Origin: an uncultured Gammaproteobacteria bacterium
Lineage (GTDB): Bacteria; Patescibacteriota; Patescibacteriia; Magasanikbacterales; JBBTXJ01
Direction: 5' to 3'
Length of the DNA stretch: 64,000 bases
NCBI GenBank assembly: GCA_964610305.1
Contig: CAZSVL010000003.1
Location: forward strand, 13,122-77,121
Of this stretch, positions 1,320-63,176 are shown one piece after another. The notes under the pieces were generated by a model. That model did no database searches. It saw only the letters and a list, made by a program, of their open reading frames with translations, and was not told where the DNA came from. Numbering within the stretch: position 1 is the stretch's first letter; every line of letters starts with the position of its first letter. The translations under genes were made by a program, and so were the position numbers.

Positions 1320-1393
1320 AGGCCACGGCGGGATTCGCACCCGCGAATAACGGTTTTGCAGACCGTCGTGTTAGACTACTTCACCACGTGGCC
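1320..1393 (-). tRNA. tRNA-Cys (anticodon GCA), discriminator U73
   Basis: Cloverleaf read on the minus strand: acceptor GGCCACG/CGTGGCC, anticodon stem-loop ACGGT-CTGCAAA-ACCGT, T-arm GCGGG-TGCGAAT-CCCGC, U73. Confidence 0.8.
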
Positions 1394-1488
1394 GTGATGA
1401 TAAATTGTGAACGTGTTTTGTCTCCCTTTGGGAGATCCCCCGAAGGGGGACAGACCGTCGTGTTAGACTACTTCACCACGTGGCCGTG
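1359..1488. repeat. 38-bp direct repeats (1359-1396 and 1451-1488) flanking a 34-bp near-palindrome (1419-1452). The repeat unit is the 5' half of tRNA-Cys (positions -3 to 35).
   Basis: Identical string cagaccgtcgtgttagactacttcaccacgtggccgtg occurs twice. The intervening tgtctccctttgggagatcccccgaagggggaca is a twin hairpin. Confidence 0.85.
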
Positions 1489-8287: not shown

Positions 8288-10648
8288 TTACTCCTCTAAA
8301 TAGTCTCCTTGTTGGCCATCAAGATAATCATCTTCTGATTGCTCATCATCAACATCCTCTTGCTGCTCCTCTTGCTCAAATGACTGCTCTTCTTGTTCAA
8401 TAATGCGTGGCGGCCGGCTTGGCACGGGAATATCCTCGTATCCATCGCTGTCATCTACCATATCAAGATCATCGGGGCTCATCAAGACTTCCCTTGCTTT
8501 TGATCCCACAGCTGGTCCTACCACATCTGCCTCTTCTAGCTCATCTAAAATACGCGCAGCTCTGGCGTAGCCAACACGCAAGCGGCGTTGCAAGAAAGAG
8601 GCGCTGGCTTTTCCGCTTTCAATAACCATTTGCCGCGCTTGCTCAAAAAGAGTGTCTCGCTCTGCGCTGCCCCCACCAAATACCGTGGCACTTGGCCCGC
8701 CTGTTTTTTCAAAATCCTCATAAGAAGGTGCATCTTGGTCCTTCAAAAAGTCTGCAATGCGGTGAATTTCTTCTTCTGATATAAATGCGCCTTGCAACCT
8801 TTTTGGTTTGGAAAGATCAGCAGTAAGTAAAAGCATATCTCCGCGACCAAGAAGTTTTTCAGCTCCAGCATTATCCAAAATAACGCGCGAGTCCATGAGG
8901 GATCCCACAGAGAATGCAACGCGCGCCGGGATGTTTGCTTTCATCAGACCAGTAATTATATCTACGCTTGGTCTTTGCGTTGCAATAACCAAGTGTATTC
9001 CCACGGCACGTGACATTTGCGCAAGCCGCACAATGCCCGCTTCTACTTCTGCGCCAGAGGTGACCATAAGATCTGCCAGCTCATCTATAACAAATACAAT
9101 GTACGGCAATTTTTCTCTACTTTTTTTGTTGTAAGAGCCAATGTCGCGGCTCTTATTTTTAGAGAGCAGATCAAAGCGCCTTTCCATTTCCGTGATCGCC
9201 CATTTAATAGCGGCAATGGTTTTGTTTTTATCCGTGATGACAGGCGTTAGCAAATGTGGAATGCCATTGTAGGCAGGAAGCTCAACACGTTTTGGGTCTA
9301 CCATGATAAAGCGTAGTGTGGCCGGCGTGTGTTGGTACAAAAGACTAATAATAAGGCTGTGGATTCCTACGGTCTTTCCAGAACCGGTTGCGCCGGCAAT
9401 AAGCAGGTGTGGCATTTTTGAGATGTCTGCAATTTTGGGTGTTCCAGAAACATCTTTTCCAACCGCAAAAAGCAAACCTTCTTTTCTGCCCTTAAATTCT
9501 TTGTGTTCCAAAAGCTCACGCAGCGTAACCATAGCAATACGCTGATTGGGTACTTCTACTCCCACCAAAGATTTACCCGGAATAGGCGCTTCTATTCTTA
9601 TGGGGTGAGCGGCAAGAGCAAGCGCCAGATCATTATGCAGAGCGGTGATTCTGTTGAGTTTAACCCCTTTGGAAGGTTTAAGGGTGTACTGAGTAACGGT
9701 TGGCCCAACCTGAATATCTCCAAGGCTTACATCAATGCCAAAATTATCCAGCGTGTCTTTTATAATAGCGCTGTTTGCTTTTATGTCTCCCGCAGTAGGT
9801 TTTGATTTAGAGGTGTATAGCAAATTGGGAGAAGGGAGGATAAAAGGTTTTTTTGGTTTTGCTGGAGCTGCTGGTTTGCTAGAGGTTTTTTCTTCTTCCT
9901 CCTCAGAGTCCGCTTGCTCTGGCGTTTCCTCTTCTAGTTCATCTTCAAAATCTGCGTCTTCATCATCAATAGTAGAGAGCGCTCTTCTCTCAAAGCCTAT
10001 ATCGTCATCTACATCATCATCCGTGCTAGCATAAGGAGTGCTTTTGCCACGCACTAATCTAGACAAGCTTACAATACTGTTTCCAATCCAGCCCAAGTGT
10101 GCCAAAACCAAGCGGTGAGTTTCTACCAGATTGGCCAGTGACATATTAAACAAAAACAGCAGCGCAACCACCAGCAGAGCAATCAGAATAATCATGCCCG
10201 CCCAATACCCTACAAATTGTTTTAATGGCCATGCCAGAGCAAGCCCTAAAATTCCACCACCACTACCAAGGAGCGCTTCATCTATTAAATCCCGCGCTGG
10301 AAAGCCCAGGTGGAACATAGCGTTTACGGCAAGAAAGAAAAGCGCCGCGCCAATAAAGTGCATGAGGGTGTAATTGTACTCGCCCTCTTTCTCAATAAGA
10401 TAGCCAATGATAATAAGGACCACGGGAATAACAAATCTAGTTTTTCCAAATCCTACAGAGAGAAATGCCTCCCAAAAAGTACCGGCCAGGCCTGCAAGCT
10501 GAAAGAAGGATAGAAGCGAGAGCCCAGCCAGTGCAAACAAAAAAATGGCGAGTACACCCCGCTTTATCTCTGGATTAAAATCAATGCGCCCAAAACTAAA
10601 GCCGTGGCGCGATCTTCGCCTCCTGCGGCGTTTTCGCCTTTTTGCCAT
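8288..10648 (-). CDS. ftsK: DNA translocase FtsK/SpoIIIE
   Basis: N-terminal TM helices, acidic linker, motor domain with Walker A IAGATGSGKT, C-terminal gamma winged helix (FLQRRLRVGYARAARILDELE), acidic tail. Confidence 0.9.
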   Translation of the reverse strand: MAKRRKRRRRRRSRHGFSFGRIDFNPEIKRGVLAIFLFALAGLSLLSFFQLAGLAGTFWEAFLSVGFGKTRFVIPVVLIIIGYLIEKEGEYNYTLMHFIGAALFFLAVNAMFHLGFPARDLIDEALLGSGGGILGLALAWPLKQFVGYWAGMIILIALLVVALLFLFNMSLANLVETHRLVLAHLGWIGNSIVSLSRLVRGKSTPYASTDDDVDDDIGFERRALSTIDDEDADFEDELEEETPEQADSEEEEEKTSSKPAAPAKPKKPFILPSPNLLYTSKSKPTAGDIKANSAIIKDTLDNFGIDVSLGDIQVGPTVTQYTLKPSKGVKLNRITALHNDLALALAAHPIRIEAPIPGKSLVGVEVPNQRIAMVTLRELLEHKEFKGRKEGLLFAVGKDVSGTPKIADISKMPHLLIAGATGSGKTVGIHSLIISLLYQHTPATLRFIMVDPKRVELPAYNGIPHLLTPVITDKNKTIAAIKWAITEMERRFDLLSKNKSRDIGSYNKKSREKLPYIVFVIDELADLMVTSGAEVEAGIVRLAQMSRAVGIHLVIATQRPSVDIITGLMKANIPARVAFSVGSLMDSRVILDNAGAEKLLGRGDMLLLTADLSKPKRLQGAFISEEEIHRIADFLKDQDAPSYEDFEKTGGPSATVFGGGSAERDTLFEQARQMVIESGKASASFLQRRLRVGYARAARILDELEEADVVGPAVGSKAREVLMSPDDLDMVDDSDGYEDIPVPSRPPRIIEQEEQSFEQEEQQEDVDDEQSEDDYLDGQQGDYLEE

Positions 10649-59943: not shown

Positions 59944-60435
59944 TTACTCTTCAGCGGTGTGCGGATGAGTGCTGGCGGTGGGGCGCCATCGCCATGGCGG
60001 AATTGCATTGTCACGCAAGATTCCGTCCTCATCAACTACGTAATAGGCTCCGCATTCGATGCTTTCTGAATCCACCATGTTTTGCTCGTGCCACATGGGC
60101 GCTACTTCTGGATCAATATGATCGTAGATCATATGACGCCCTTTGAGTGATCTTACATCGTGGCGTCGGTGGAGATCGCTTTTGACATCAGCCCATGGGC
60201 GTCCACATTGACGATCAAGCCAGCGATACACTGGATTGAGCGTATCAGAGAATTCTCGGTAGAACCAGCCACGATGCGGCTTGTCCTGGATGTCTAGATC
60301 ACTAGGATCTGCCGCGCATTGAAGAGTTCTCTTTGCGTTCTGCCGATTGTTGCGGTTGATTGCTCGGCGCTCAAATTTGCTTGCCTTGCTCCGGCCACCC
60401 TCAATGGCTGAGCGAGAGAGTTTTTTTGTTGCCAT
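59944..60435 (-). CDS. Hypothetical protein, paralogous N-terminus with 59074-59817
   Basis: MATKKLSRSAIEGG...RPWADVKSDLHRRHD. Confidence 0.45.
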   Translation of the reverse strand: MATKKLSRSAIEGGRSKASKFERRAINRNNRQNAKRTLQCAADPSDLDIQDKPHRGWFYREFSDTLNPVYRWLDRQCGRPWADVKSDLHRRHDVRSLKGRHMIYDHIDPEVAPMWHEQNMVDSESIECGAYYVVDEDGILRDNAIPPWRWRPTASTHPHTAEE

Positions 60436-60514: not shown

Positions 60515-60670
60515 TGGAAGGGGTAGGATTCGATGAGCAAATGAGTGAGTGTAATAAACATGCTCGCATGCTTATTACCGAGCGAATGCTGCTCGGCCCG
60601 AAGGGCACCTACGAAGACGGTGTCGTCGGATTTACAATCCGGTGCCTTTAACCAACTCGGCCACCCTTCC
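60515..60670 (-). tRNA. tRNA-Tyr (anticodon GTA), type II, carrying a 73-nt structured insertion in the T-loop between nt 54 and 55 (60534-60606)
   Basis: GGAAGGG...CCGGA-TTGTAAA-TCCGA...GTAGG-T[GCCCTTCGGGCCGAGCAGCATTCGCTCGGTAATAAGCATGCGAGCATGTTTATTACACTCACTCATTTGCTCA]TCGAAT-CCTAC-CCCTTCC-A. Confidence 0.6.
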
Positions 60671-60677
60671 ATTAAAG

Positions 60678-60752
60678 TATCCCCAAGGGGATTTGAACCC
60701 CTGCCTCCGGATTGAGAGTCCGGTGTCCTGAGCCTGACTAGACGATGGGGAC
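60678..60752 (-). tRNA. tRNA-Glu (anticodon CTC)
   Basis: GTCCCCATCGTCTAG...CCGGA-CTCTCAA-TCCGG...GGGG-TTCAAAT-CCCC. Confidence 0.75.
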
Positions 60753-60756
60753 GGGG

Positions 60757-60830
60757 CGGTGATGACGAGACTTGAACTCGCAACCTTCGGCCTGACAAGC
60801 CGCTACACTAGCCAATTGTGTTACATCACC
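60757..60830 (-). tRNA. tRNA-Asp (anticodon GTC)
   Basis: Acceptor GGTGATG/CATCACC-G, anticodon loop TTGTCAG. Confidence 0.7.
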
Positions 60831-60868
60831 TGAAGGCTTGCCTGGCGTAGCCGAAGGCGAAGCCTGGG

Positions 60869-60941
60869 TGGAGCCGACAGGAATCGAACCTGCGACATCC
60901 GGCGTGCAAAGCCGGCGCTCTCCCAACTGAGCTACAGCCCC
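60869..60941 (-). tRNA. tRNA-Ala (anticodon TGC), G3-U70; second copy
   Basis: GGGGCTG-TA-GCTC-AGTTGGGA-GAGC-G-CCGGC-TTTGCAC-GCCGG...CGGCTCC-A. Confidence 0.8.
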
Positions 60942-60948
60942 AAATAGG

Positions 60949-61037
60949 AGGAGGGGGTGGGATTTGAACCCACGGGACTCACTGGTGAGCCCAACGGGTT
61001 AGCAACCCGACGCCTTCAGCCACTCGGCCACCCCTCC
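60949..61037 (-). tRNA. tRNA-Ser (anticodon GCT), type II
   Basis: Acceptor GGAGGGG/CCCCTCC, 3-bp D-stem, anticodon loop TTGCTAA, long variable arm GGGCTCACCAGTGAGTCC. Confidence 0.75.
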
Positions 61038-61041
61038 ATAA

Positions 61042-61116
61042 TGCGCCCGGCGGGATTTGAACCCGCAACCACTGGATCCGGAGTCCAGCGCTCTACATCC
61101 ATTGAGCTACGGGCGT
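61042..61116 (-). tRNA. tRNA-Arg (anticodon CCG)
   Basis: ACGCCCG-TA-GCTC-AATGGATGTA-GAGC-G-CTGGA-CTCCGGA-TCCAG...GCGGG-TTCAAAT-CCCGC-CGGGCGC-A (A1-C72 mismatch). Confidence 0.7.
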
Positions 61117-61126
61117 TCAATGCTGA

Positions 61127-61181
61127 GGGCCGACGCTTTGGTCGCCCCCCCGACCCCTTCGGGCGTCGGGGCTACGGACGC
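61127..61181 (-). repeat. 44-nt twin-hairpin element (61127-61170) with an upstream pseudo-acceptor GCGTCCG-TAGC (61171-61181), duplicating the tRNA-Arg(CCG) 5' end
   Basis: RNA sense: GCGTCCG TAGC [CCCGACGCCCGAAGGGGTCGGGGGGGCGACCAAAGCGTCGGCCC] TCAGCATTGA ACGCCCGTAGC... Confidence 0.6.
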
Positions 61182-61186
61182 TTAAG

Positions 61187-61259
61187 TACGCCGTGAGGGA
61201 ATTGAACCCCCGACCCATGGATTAAAAGTCCAGTGCTCTACCTACTGAGCTAACAGCGC
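61187..61259 (-). tRNA. tRNA-Lys (anticodon TTT)
   Basis: GCGCTGT-TA-GCTC-AGTAGGTA-GAGC-A-CTGGA-CTTTTAA-TCCAT...GGGGG-TTCAATT-CCCTC-ACGGCGT-A. Confidence 0.7.
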
Positions 61260-61265
61260 ATAAAA

Positions 61266-61338
61266 GGTGAATGACGGGACTTGAACCCGCGACCTCTGGA
61301 GCCACAATCCAGCGCTCTCCCATCTGAGCTACATTCAC
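61266..61338 (-). tRNA. tRNA-His (anticodon GTG), C73
   Basis: GTGAATG-TA-GCTC...CTGGA-TTGTGGC-TCCAG...GCGGG-TTCAAGT-CCCGT-CATTCAC-C. Confidence 0.75.
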
Positions 61339-61340
61339 AG

Positions 61341-61413
61341 TGCCAGAGACAAGAATTGAACTTGTGACTCAGGGATTTTCAATCCCCAGCTCTACCTACT
61401 GAGCTACCCTGGC
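61341..61413 (-). tRNA. tRNA-Phe (anticodon GAA), intact, A37
   Basis: GCCAGGG-TA-GCTC-AGTAGGTA-GAGC-T-GGGGA-TTGAAAA-TCCCT-GAGTC-ACAAG-TTCAATT-CTTGT-CTCTGGC-A. Confidence 0.8.
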
Positions 61414-61415
61414 AT

Positions 61416-61489
61416 AGAACGGAGGGGGACTCGAACCCCCGAACATCCGATTTGCAGTCGGAGCCCTTAGCCAACTCGGGTACCCGTTC
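61416..61489 (-). tRNA. tRNA-Cys (anticodon GCA), U73; second copy
   Basis: GAACGGG...TCCGA-CTGCAAA-TCGGA-TGTTC-GGGGG-TTCGAGT-CCCCC-TCCGTTC-T. Confidence 0.75.
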
Positions 61490-61496
61490 AGAGATT

Positions 61497-61530
61497 TGTC
61501 TCCCTTCGGGAGATCTCCCGAAGGGAGACA
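61497..61530. repeat. 34-bp perfect palindrome (twin hairpin) upstream of tRNA-Cys; homologous to 1419-1452
   Basis: tgtctcccttcgggagatctcccgaagggagaca. Confidence 0.85.
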
Positions 61531-61567
61531 GTCCTGTACCTAGCCAATTCGGACACTCATCCAGAAG

Positions 61568-61713
61568 TGCGCACACTTGGACTTGATCGGTAAACGAGTG
61601 AGTGGAGTAGGCATGCTTGCATGTCTACTCCCGAGCAAGTGCGACCGAGCCCGAAGGGTACCAAGGACCCTCTGGGTGTAAACCAGATGCTCTCCCAACT
61701 GAGCTATGCACGC
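61568..61713 (-). tRNA. tRNA-Val (anticodon TAC) carrying a 73-nt structured insertion in the T-loop between nt 54 and 55 (61587-61659)
   Basis: GCGTGCA-TA-GCTC-AGTTGGGA-GAGC-A-TCTGG-TTTACAC-CCAGA-GGGTC-CTTGG-T[ACCCTTCGGGCTCGGTCGCACTTGCTCGGGAGTAGACATGCAAGCATGCCTACTCCACTCACTCGTTTACCGA]TCAAGT-CCAAG-TGTGCGC-A. Confidence 0.6.
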
Positions 61714-61871: not shown

Positions 61872-61988
61872 AGCGGTAAGCCGGCCTCGAACCGACGACC
61901 CTCTGCTTGGAAGGCAGACGCTCTACCAACTGAGGACCGACGTTTCAGTCGGTCCCCCGACCCCTTTAGGCGTCGGGGCTATTACCGT
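61872..61988 (-). tRNA. tRNA-Gly (anticodon TCC) copy interrupted in the D-stem (between nt 11 and 12) by a 44-nt twin-hairpin element (61934-61977)
   Basis: ACGGTAA-TA-GC[CCCGACGCCTAAAGGGGTCGGGGGACCGACTGAAACGTCGGTCC]TC-AGTTGGTA-GAGC-G-TCTGC-CTTCCAA-GCAGA-GGGTC-GTCGG-TTCGAGG-CCGGC-TTACCGC-T. Confidence 0.55.
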
Positions 61989-63086: not shown

Positions 63087-63103
63087 TTCTATCTCCTAAG
63101 AAG

Positions 63104-63176
63104 TACGCCATGGAGGATTCGAACCTCCGACCAGTGGGTTAGAAATCCACTGCTCTGTCCCCTGAGCTAATGGCGC
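63104..63176 (-). tRNA. tRNA-Arg (anticodon TCT), intact
   Basis: GCGCCAT-TA-GCTC-AGGGGACA-GAGC-A-GTGGA-TTTCTAA-CCCAC-TGGTC-GGAGG-TTCGAAT-CCTCC-ATGGCGT-A. Confidence 0.75.

Follow-up and report, generated by a model that had tools for sequence, protein, structure and literature searches.

A structured element of about 70–75 nt, probably mobile DNA, interrupts the T-loops of three bacterial tRNA genes and has relatives inside protein-coding genes of other phyla

On a 64-kb stretch of bacterial chromosome (contig CAZSVL010000003.1; this whole stretch is referred to as the window, and coordinates are those of the window unless stated otherwise), the genes for tRNA-Tyr(GTA), tRNA-Val(TAC) and one copy of tRNA-Arg(TCT) are each interrupted by a structured insert of 70–73 nt. 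These inserts probably, though by no means surely, represent a non-autonomous, non-coding and structured mobile DNA element of about 70–75 nt that does not splice and of which one subfamily is specific for T-loops. A new intron is accordingly less likely than selfish DNA. All three lie on the minus strand and at position 54/55, as a first-pass annotation made from the sequence alone had placed them, and their coordinates are collected in Table 1.

The interruptions could be delimited exactly to the nucleotide, with junctions that read GGT / insert / TCGAATCC in the Tyr and Arg genes and GGT / insert / TCAAGTCC in the Val gene. The break falls at one and the same T-loop position, T54/T55, in all three genes, and the inserts share the same orientation, with GGT on their left and no target duplication. 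The Rfam tRNA model spans the Tyr insert as a gap across the whole gene (cf. Table 1), and yields only a partial match to the Val gene (61648–61713, 26.5 bits). ARAGORN missed all three genes on the unedited window, and upon in silico excision of the insert it called tRNA-Tyr(gta) and tRNA-Val(tac) with normal cloverleaves. The tRNA-Arg(tct) gene was called only when its T-loop insert and a second insert in its D-stem were both excised. These calls bear out the statement of the first-pass annotation that removal of the insert restores a canonical T-loop. A 185-aa open reading frame (ORF; 40530–41087, minus strand) overlaps the interrupted tRNA-Arg gene and its insert, and is almost certainly spurious; gene callers may place such ORFs over interrupted tRNAs.

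The motif GCTCGG-N15–40-TCACTC, which is shared by the inserts, occurs three times in the window vs. 0.16 times expected, and none of 100 shuffles reached three. Moreover, the Tyr insertion recurs in L108, a Logan assembly made independently from this organism (99.96% identical; L-numbers denote loci fetched from genome and metagenome collections) and is therefore not an assembly artefact.

The fold of the element was derived from an alignment of the three copies together with their minimum-free-energy folds, and consists of three helices (P1, P2 and P3) and two conserved joining strands (i.e., ..GCUCGG and CACUCACUC). Specifically, P1 is a sequence-conserved GC hairpin of the form (G/A)CCC-UNC-GGGC that begins at the first nucleotide of the insert, while P2 is formed between the 5–6 nt following P1 and the last 5–6 nt of the insert. 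All P2 pairs differ between the copies (GAGCA/UGCUC in Tyr, UCGGU/ACCGA in Val and AAGUGG/CCACUU in Arg). P3 is a hairpin of 11–12 bp, of which the stem varies by copy and the tip, UGC-RA-GCA, is conserved. The strand joining P2 to P3 (J2/3) ends in an invariant GCUCGG, and the strand leading back (J3/2) reads C(A/U)(C/U)UCACUC in the window copies; P2 and P3 flank an asymmetric conserved internal loop with ..GCUCGG on one side and CUC(R)CUC on the other. The first-pass annotation had proposed a shared series of hairpins, in which the P1 hairpin and the covarying third hairpin hold up, and the second one (CCGAGC/GCTCGG) turns out to be confined to the Tyr copy. Since P1 starts at the 5′ junction and P2 stops one nucleotide short of the 3′ junction, both ends of the insert are predicted to meet at a three-way junction made up of the T-stem, P1 and P2.

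On direct reading of the sequences, the 5 nt preceding GCUCGG complement nt 56–60 of the T-loop in both the Tyr (ATTCG/CGAAT) and the Val copy (ACTTG/CAAGT), with two compensatory changes between them; the Arg copy keeps 3 bp only. Seen in three sequences and with a chance probability estimated at a few per cent, this complementarity is suggestive.

Relatives of the element were searched for with a pattern composed of P1, GCTCGG and the P3 tip, and the same architecture was found in Prevotellaceae (at many loci), Fibrobacter, a Saccharibacteria metagenome-assembled genome (MAG) and metagenome contigs of unknown origin. Covariance model R1 detects 53 copies in the fetched loci. A second model, R2, was restricted to 14 members from Prevotellaceae, Fibrobacter and other metagenome copies, with none from the window. 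When run against the window (128 kb of searched strand), R2 returned exactly the three T-loop inserts (44.4, 43.3 and 39.1 bits; E = 3e-9 to 6e-8). Because R2 was built without the window copies and nevertheless recovers all three, the homology is independent of the window's own sequences. The element is not evidently phage-borne, two motif scans of viral contigs having yielded nothing but chance matches and one unrelated coding family.

With more copies aligned, the fold gained statistical support. Over the 12 modelled P1 and P3 pairs of the R1 alignment, 90.6% of the cells were paired vs. 73% in shuffles, and changes on both sides were present in nine of these pairs. The covariation score amounted to 0.41 vs. 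0.11, was reached by none of 500 shuffles, and collapsed when the partners were slid by one column. For P2 (i.e., the helix between the guide region and the tail of the element) the mean longest helix was 4.45 vs. 3.70 for shuffled tails (maximum 4.10). The sequence of P2 differs from lineage to lineage, as exemplified by ATTTAGTA/TACTAAAT in L034, AAATGC/GCATTT and CAAACCT/AGGTTTG in L046, ACTTCCC/GGGAAGT in L101, and CTGC/GCAG, CTGT/ACAG, TTGC/GCAA, CTTC/GAAG and TGAT/ATCA in Prevotella. The compensatory changes that had initially been taken to argue for a selected RNA structure are thus genuine, in that a common fold is maintained and both P2 and P3 covary. A mobile element that its mobilising enzyme recognises as a folded single strand would be expected to covary in structure just as much. 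Furthermore, P3 folds equally well on both strands (summed energy of –358 vs. –374 kcal/mol) and has few G-U pairs, in keeping with a DNA palindrome. The idea of deriving the folding strand from G-U pairs was abandoned, as no bias was seen.

The genomic positions of the relatives point to mobile DNA. In Prevotellaceae and Fibrobacter, copies reside inside long ORFs (230–1571 codons) that stay open throughout, and most copies are antisense to the host gene. Antisense copies lie in ORFs of about 1061, 1571, 957, 331 and 234 codons, and a sense copy lies in a 253-codon ORF with a pyridoxamine-oxidase-like domain. An antisense-oriented element that the ribosome reads through in such an ORF cannot act there as a cis-splicing RNA. 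Copies also occur in tandem with a period of 75 nt, corresponding to 25 codons (arrays in L048, L082, L083 and L046), and an ORF with two copies measures 1086 codons vs. 1061 in its one-copy counterpart, i.e., 25 codons more.

Presence/absence of the element at a single site is seen in a Prevotella aldo/keto reductase carrying a 25-aa insert, in which IGQKYGK is followed by the inserted AEIERAQNHACMNSAEREQARPKGK and then by SAAQVALRWLTQRG (the SAAQVALRW side). Solved aldo/keto reductases read KYGKTVAQVILRWLTQKG, unbroken at the insert site, and at least 120 closest homologues listed (93–96% identical) are all 281 aa long, hence without the insert. On the nucleotide level, and in the orientation of the element, the empty allele reads GGCAGTCTTA / CCATATTT (i.e., TCTTA/CCATAT), and the filled allele reads GCACTCTTG (TCTTG), followed by the 75-nt insert CCCTTCGGG...CAGCCTTG (ending in CCTTG) and by CCATACTT (CCATAC). 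The insertion directly follows YTTR and ends in CTTG. By-eye comparison of the Prevotellaceae sites likewise gave YTTG as left flank (GCTG at one site).

Judged from these sequences, the element is mobile DNA that is polymorphic between strains and that the ribosome apparently reads through. With relatives lying in ORFs, in both orientations, in tandem and polymorphic, the earlier step from the T-loop inserts to an intron or ribozyme is not supported as it was stated. The family is spread across phyla and, in Prevotellaceae and Fibrobacter, survives where its 75 nt (25 codons) keep the reading frame. In the window genome, one subfamily has landed in a single orientation, and without target duplication, at T54/T55 of three tRNAs.

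Outside the T-loops, flanking repeats range from 0 to about 16 nt depending on the lineage, and the ends of the element are not mutual inverted repeats. A classical miniature inverted-repeat transposable element (MITE) was rejected for want of a fixed-length target duplication (none at the three T-loop sites, and flanking repeats of 4–6 to about 16 nt at other sites) and of terminal inverted repeats, and no single transposition chemistry could be derived, the flanking-repeat lengths being inconsistent between lineages. At two further loci (L091 and L093) the right flank reads TCGA(A/T)TCC and is T-loop-like (T / TCGAATCC). Despite these flanks, both loci were rejected as tRNA genes, and the recurrence of this flank at non-tRNA sites suggests that targeting may be sequence-directed. 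In the Saccharibacteria MAG (L052, 7837–7973 of that locus; CAYURH010000016.1), a copy is located directly upstream of a tRNA, and is flanked on either side by a repeat of the initial 8 nt of this tRNA (GGCCCCAT).

An empty counterpart of the tRNA-Tyr site was found in a related genome, using two neighbouring hypothetical proteins as queries for relatives of the host organism. One contig (L109, ENA ERZ930066) proved to be a syntenic relative, with a tmRNA tag peptide identical to that of the window, homologous segments that are ~69–85% identical on the nucleotide level, and the same gene order downstream of the tRNA array. Here, an uninterrupted 83-nt tRNA-Tyr(GTA) gene adjoins the homologue of ORF 59944–60435, and the element was not found in the 20.8 kb of this contig that were fetched. 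The Tyr insert of the window is therefore a lineage-specific gain in the ancestral Tyr gene (or was lost in the relative). DNA runs are available from the organism of the window (SRR8146441) and from this relative (ERR2281804/5). The other relatives found were short or non-syntenic contigs without the element.

Two of the fetched contigs showed further particularities. L109 contains GC-rich direct repeats of ~35 nt between tRNA genes (9690–9760 and 9845–9930), with AGGCTGCGCCAGGGCAGGCC and CTTCGCTAAAGCTTCGA(A/G)GTGCAGGCAC each occurring twice, and a similar CTTCGCTAAAGCTTCGTAGTGCAGGTAC is present at 45893–45913 of the window. L112 (ENA ERZ25039484 contig_61807) holds, over 20 kb, 17 tRNA genes among small hypothetical ORFs, with tandem duplicates, a distant homologue of ORF 59944–60435 and a predicted tRNA-Ser with anticodon ACT; it looks like a phage-like or mobile tRNA array.

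Taken as a mobile element, the family might choose its targets by a short pairing of the guide region with the flank, while P2 would bring its own termini together. The CGAG guide of Prevotella could pair with YTTG on the left flank as well as with the CTTG in which the element ends, and in Fibrobacter (L034) a single 8-nt guide matches left flank and tail alike, which would suit the same scheme. In the Tyr and Val copies, the 5 nt upstream of GCUCGG would pair with T-loop nt 56–60, and in the Saccharibacteria MAG a GGCC guide would match the first nucleotides of the adjacent tRNA. Mobilisation might then be accomplished by a trans-acting enzyme on folded single-stranded DNA, in the style of the IS200/IS605 HUH transposases. 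The latter cause no duplication, insert in one orientation at a short fixed target, and are guided by pairing at the foot of an imperfect hairpin. The interrupted genes would presumably be transcribed along with the array, and no normal tRNA would result as long as the insert stays in place. In fact, because a three-way junction at 54/55 is incompatible with the elbow formed by the T-loop and D-loop, the interrupted transcripts are expected to be nonfunctional as long as they retain the insert. Within the window, intact isoacceptor genes exist for Arg(TCT) (a diverged paralogue at 63103–63176) and for Gly(TCC), of which one copy bears an unrelated D-arm insert (Table 1), so that the interrupted Arg and Gly copies are expected to be disabled or redundant.

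Several observations weigh against a mobile element without splicing. ARAGORN and Rfam revealed no second tRNA-Tyr or tRNA-Val gene in the 64-kb window, and if the interrupted genes are the sole copies, removal of the insert is obligatory. The interrupted tRNA-Tyr is, moreover, the syntenic counterpart of an intact gene. The copies differ almost fully in P2 and P3, yet their tRNA parts make good cloverleaves, a combination compatible with long-term selection on the tRNA and, to the same degree, with recent insertions that derive from diverged masters. The covariation between J2/3 and the T-loop could serve splicing instead of targeting, and the left-flank pairing of the Prevotella copies is missing from those in the T-loops. 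The variable flanking repeats elsewhere in the family fit no single transposition chemistry. Finally, no Y1/HUH transposase was found by a Pfam scan of 42 of the 52 window ORFs (those of at least 150 aa) or was linked to any copy, and the sole transposase in the window is IS110-like.

Much of this would fall into place if the inserts were a new and very small tRNA intron, removed by its own catalysis or by host nucleases and an RNA ligase (RtcB), with the Tyr and Val genes being functional; we consider this explanation unlikely, albeit far from negligible. In such an intron, the T-stem/P1/P2 junction would hold the splice sites, the J2/3–T-loop pairing would align the 3′ exon, and mobility would stem from phenotypic silence, as for group I introns and IStrons. 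The lack of other Tyr and Val genes on 64 kb of core chromosome, the synteny-based orthology of the interrupted Tyr to an intact gene, and the intact exon cloverleaves next to strongly diverged inserts all agree with it. So do the meeting of both insert ends at the junction through P1 and P2, and the 5-bp T-loop complementarity, which carries two compensatory changes between Tyr and Val and has degenerated (3 bp) in Arg, for which an intact paralogue exists. In addition, the 5′ exon ends in U, as with group I introns, and other tRNAs of the genome accommodate a group I intron and a D-stem insert. Against it stands that family members elsewhere are translated through in both orientations, and thus that the fold is not itself a splicing device. 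The existence of intact Arg(TCT) and Gly(TCC) copies also speaks against it. To our knowledge, 70–73 nt is far below the size of any known self-splicing intron. In its most specific form, this explanation would have the T-loop subfamily be a new minimal tRNA intron that homes to 54/55 through pairing with nt 56–60 and is excised from the precursor, leaving the sole Tyr and Val(UAC) genes functional; this we regard as doubtful. Such an intron would descend from, or have given rise to, the cross-phylum family of in-gene elements.

Known intron classes offer no close match. No Rfam 15 family matched the T-loop inserts at its gathering threshold, and none matched the region with the Tyr and Val genes at E ≤ 10, in line with the first-pass annotation, which could assign the inserts to no known class from the sequence. 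The same scan did detect a true group I intron in a tRNA-Phe gene of the window (RF00028, 45617–45837, 83.8 bits). Group I tRNA introns resemble the T-loop inserts in being mobile, in residing in a tRNA gene, in having a U at the 5′ junction (the last nucleotide of the 5′ exon, which is also a U in front of the T-loop inserts) and in having a segment that complements the 3′ exon, like P10. They differ by their length (>200 nt), catalytic core, terminal G and anticodon-loop position, and the relatives of the T-loop element sit in ORFs and are translated. The inserts were accordingly rejected as group I introns: they give no RF00028 match at gathering (nor, for Tyr and Val, at E ≤ 10), have no core, lie between nt 54 and 55, measure 70–73 nt and end in A instead of G.

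A bulge-helix-bulge (BHB) motif, i.e., two 3-nt bulges 4 bp apart that hold both splice sites, was rejected as well, since none could be drawn: the 5′ junction abuts P1, the 3′ junction abuts P2, and there is no 4-bp exon–intron helix. The Pfam scan of the same 42 ORFs revealed no RtcB, splicing endonuclease or EndA. Archaeal non-canonical tRNA introns are alike in being small, in occupying D-arm and T-arm sites, and in occurring several per gene (cf. the D-stem and T-loop pair of the Arg gene). They differ in relying on a BHB that is cut by EndA and joined by RtcB, whereas the host is bacterial here (tmRNA, rpoB/C, FtsK).

We also weighed whether the insert might be a new self-cleaving ribozyme, resembling hatchet, that cuts after U54 without religation and thereby destroys or regulates the tRNA or frees a downstream RNA; this seems improbable. 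Hatchet has its cleavage site just 5′ of P1, a P2 closed by the 3′ end, a conserved loop between P2 and P3, and conserved nucleotides at C20–A22, U28–G31, G63–G66 and A73–A75 (PMC6561176). The topology of the insert matches this layout, in that the junction is followed by the P1 hairpin, by P2, which the 3′ end closes, and then by a conserved internal loop and a distal hairpin. The conserved nucleotides of hatchet are absent, however, and no Rfam ribozyme matched at E ≤ 10, and hatchet was rejected. Furthermore, at least one ORF holds a sense copy (L043/L090), where cleavage would destroy the mRNA, and the majority of the remaining copies run antisense to the gene that hosts them.

Alternatively, the insert could be retained as an expansion of the T-arm, or it could be trimmed out, so that two tRNA pieces remain that are kept in contact through the acceptor and T stems. 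The insert is indeed predicted to be an independent domain next to intact acceptor, D, anticodon and T stems, and in many bacteria RNase III excises rRNA intervening sequences while the ends stay unjoined, yielding fragmented rRNAs. By structural reasoning on the canonical fold, however, the T54–A58 and U55–G18 contacts of the elbow are not compatible with a three-way junction placed between these two nucleotides, T54 and U55, and P3 (11–12 bp) is short for RNase III. We know of no two-piece tRNA in bacteria, and regard this outcome as very improbable.

Among the RNA motifs considered, one shows a partial likeness, i.e., the Clostridiales-1 RNA motif (RF01699, function unknown; PMC2864571), which shares with the L052 copy a GUGC-AA-GCAC tip and a flanking GGCC helix. 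Its match on L052 scores 35.3 bits vs. a gathering threshold of 48, lies on the opposite strand, and requires ~55 nt of extra flanking structure. In the Tyr and Val region RF01699 gave no match at E ≤ 10, and its gathering threshold is reached by none of the window copies. RF01699 may nevertheless be a longer relative of the element family that has been annotated on the other strand.

Table 1. Coordinates in the window of the interrupted tRNA genes, their inserts and the parts of the Tyr element.
Feature	Position	Strand	Basis
tRNA-Tyr(GTA), interrupted T54/T55	60515–60670	minus	Rfam tRNA match 37.8 bits; ARAGORN after excision
tRNA-Tyr exon parts	5′ part 60607–60670; 3′ part 60515–60533	minus	
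Tyr element, 73 nt	60534–60606	minus	minimum-free-energy fold; model R2 44.4 bits, E = 2.7e-9
Tyr element, P1	60596–60606	minus	
Tyr element, P2 5′ strand	60590–60594	minus	
Tyr element, J2/3 with GCTCGG	60578–60589	minus	
Tyr element, P3 hairpin	60552–60577	minus	
Tyr element, J3/2, CACTCACTCATT	60540–60551	minus	
Tyr element, P2 3′ strand	60535–60539	minus	
tRNA-Val(TAC), interrupted T54/T55	61568–61713	minus	sequence; ARAGORN after excision
Val element, 73 nt	61587–61659	minus	R2 39.1 bits, E = 5.5e-8
tRNA-Arg(TCT) copy, two inserts (D-stem and T-loop)	40997–41184	minus	sequence; ARAGORN after double excision
Arg element, 70 nt	41016–41085	minus	R2 43.3 bits, E = 5e-9
44-nt double-hairpin D-stem insert, tRNA-Arg(TCT)	41130–41173	minus	pattern 3 times vs. 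0 expected
44-nt D-stem insert in tRNA-Gly(TCC) (about 61874–61988)	61934–61977	minus	
44-nt insert in tRNA 5′ fragment just upstream of tRNA-Arg(CCG)	61127–61170	minus	
tRNA-Phe(GAA), anticodon-loop group I intron	45570–45859; exons 45859–45824 and 45605–45570; intron 45823–45606	minus	RF00028 83.8 bits

The window itself is core bacterial chromosome with a GC content of about 46%, and carries rpsF, ssb, efp, recA, ftsK, rpoB, rpoC, glmS, yebC, ruvC and ruvB, next to genes for a class II ribonucleotide reductase, IMP dehydrogenase and tmRNA. An origin of the window from a jumbo phage was rejected once such core genes (rpoB/C, FtsK, RecA, RuvB/C and others) had been found; blastn of the tRNA array against phages returned nothing but generic tRNA matches. 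Besides 29 tRNAs called by ARAGORN, the window contains four tRNA genes interrupted by small inserts and the intron-bearing tRNA-Phe. Most of all these tRNA genes lie in a single minus-strand array at 60.5–64 kb.

The D-stem insert of tRNA-Arg(TCT) belongs to a second, 44-nt element, which is composed of CCCGACGCC..AAGGGGTCGGGG and GGNCGAC..GTCGGNCC, follows nt 10/11, and is unrelated to the T-loop element. Excision of this insert made ARAGORN call tRNA-Gly(tcc). The tRNA 5′ fragment that carries the third copy is decayed, and insert-bearing genes do decay in this genome. The 44-nt element was not found in viral contigs or in the fetched loci, except in L108 from the same organism. As to the tRNA-Arg(CCG) gene downstream of this fragment (61042–61192, minus strand), it has an A1–C72 mismatch as called; the fragment reads GCGTCCGTAGC, D-insert, TCAGCATTGA, and its GCGTCCG start would pair perfectly with the 3′ acceptor strand of the gene. 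It may be the remnant of a rearranged or doubly interrupted gene.

The tRNA-Phe(GAA) gene with the group I intron was not called by ARAGORN, and an intact tRNA-Phe(GAA) is located at 61340–61413; a 233-aa ORF containing a helix-turn-helix (HTH; 44812–45513) follows the intron-bearing gene. In the tRNA-Cys region (1393–1485, minus strand), the first 35 nt of the gene, up to the anticodon loop, are duplicated at 1485–1451 and followed by a hairpin repeat (1450–1421, TCCCCCTTCGGGGGATCTCCCAAAGGGAGA), a spacer and the complete tRNA-Cys (1393–1319). By its appearance, this duplication is a scar left behind when the anticodon loop underwent an insertion or recombination. A third small repeat, the near-perfect palindrome GTCTCCCTTCGGGAGATCTCCCGAAGGGAGAC, lies between tRNA genes at 61498–61529 and 1421–1450, and the hairpin module CCCTTCGGG / CCCGAAGGG is common to the three types of small element in this genome. 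The IS110-like ORF (586 aa, 42468–44228, minus strand), with Transposase_20 (IS110/IS116/IS902) as its sole domain match, lies 1.3 kb from the interrupted Arg gene. Its 586 aa are more than is usual for IS110-family transposases, and no link between this ORF and the small elements was evident.

The element family is absent from Rfam 15, and our literature searches on introns of the T-loop, ribozymes embedded in tRNAs and palindromic elements in frame within tRNAs yielded no description of it, nor of T-loop inserts in bacterial tRNAs, the sole contact with a described family being the sub-threshold, opposite-strand RF01699 match on L052. Should the inserts be mobile DNA, they would constitute a compact mobile element occurring across Bacteroidota, Fibrobacterota, Patescibacteria and the bacterium of the window, adding 25-residue segments to proteins in the way of Rickettsia palindromic elements. 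It would also choose its targets by a few guide base pairs, raising the questions of which enzyme moves it and whether its guide can be reprogrammed. Should the inserts be spliced, they would constitute a categorically new bacterial tRNA intron, much smaller than any other and the first to lie elsewhere than in the anticodon loop. For annotation, ARAGORN missed all four tRNAs with small inserts, so that a genome can appear to be devoid of tRNA-Tyr and tRNA-Val.

With regard to known mobile elements, IS200/IS605, PATEs and REP/RAYT are alike in causing no duplication and in inserting in one orientation 3′ of a fixed sequence (GGT here, YTTG in Prevotella). They are also alike in their imperfect hairpins, which often have an unpaired base, and in short guides that pair with flank and element end. 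The present element differs in being one compact unit with a single guide region, instead of having separate left- and right-end hairpins. The resemblance to IS200/IS605 would be one of mechanism; the flank pattern is compatible with that family but not specific to it.

As a kind, small palindromic mobile elements inside genes have precedents. Rickettsia palindromic elements (RPEs) have been reported to insert into RNA genes as well. RPEs and in-frame MITEs such as the Coxiella QMITE (PMC10969869) are likewise short, non-coding, structured or palindromic, and multi-copy. Both further resemble the present element in their frame-keeping in-gene insertion that adds a peptide, in presence/absence between related genomes, and in having no assigned mobilising enzyme. 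The traits that mark RPEs and in-gene MITEs are found here too, i.e., a multi-copy structured repeat, in-frame insertion into ORFs, and presence/absence at the reductase and tRNA-Tyr sites. RPEs differ in being about 100–150 nt long (the present element being about half that size), in showing no sequence similarity to it, and in being confined to one genus vs. several phyla. Unlike RPEs, moreover, the element has a three-helix fold with a conserved internal loop and a covarying guide–tail helix, and includes a subfamily that is specific for one phosphodiester bond of the T-loop and causes no target duplication. What is new is the defined three-helix fold with its guide–tail helix, together with the spread of the family across phyla and the existence of a T-loop-specific subfamily.

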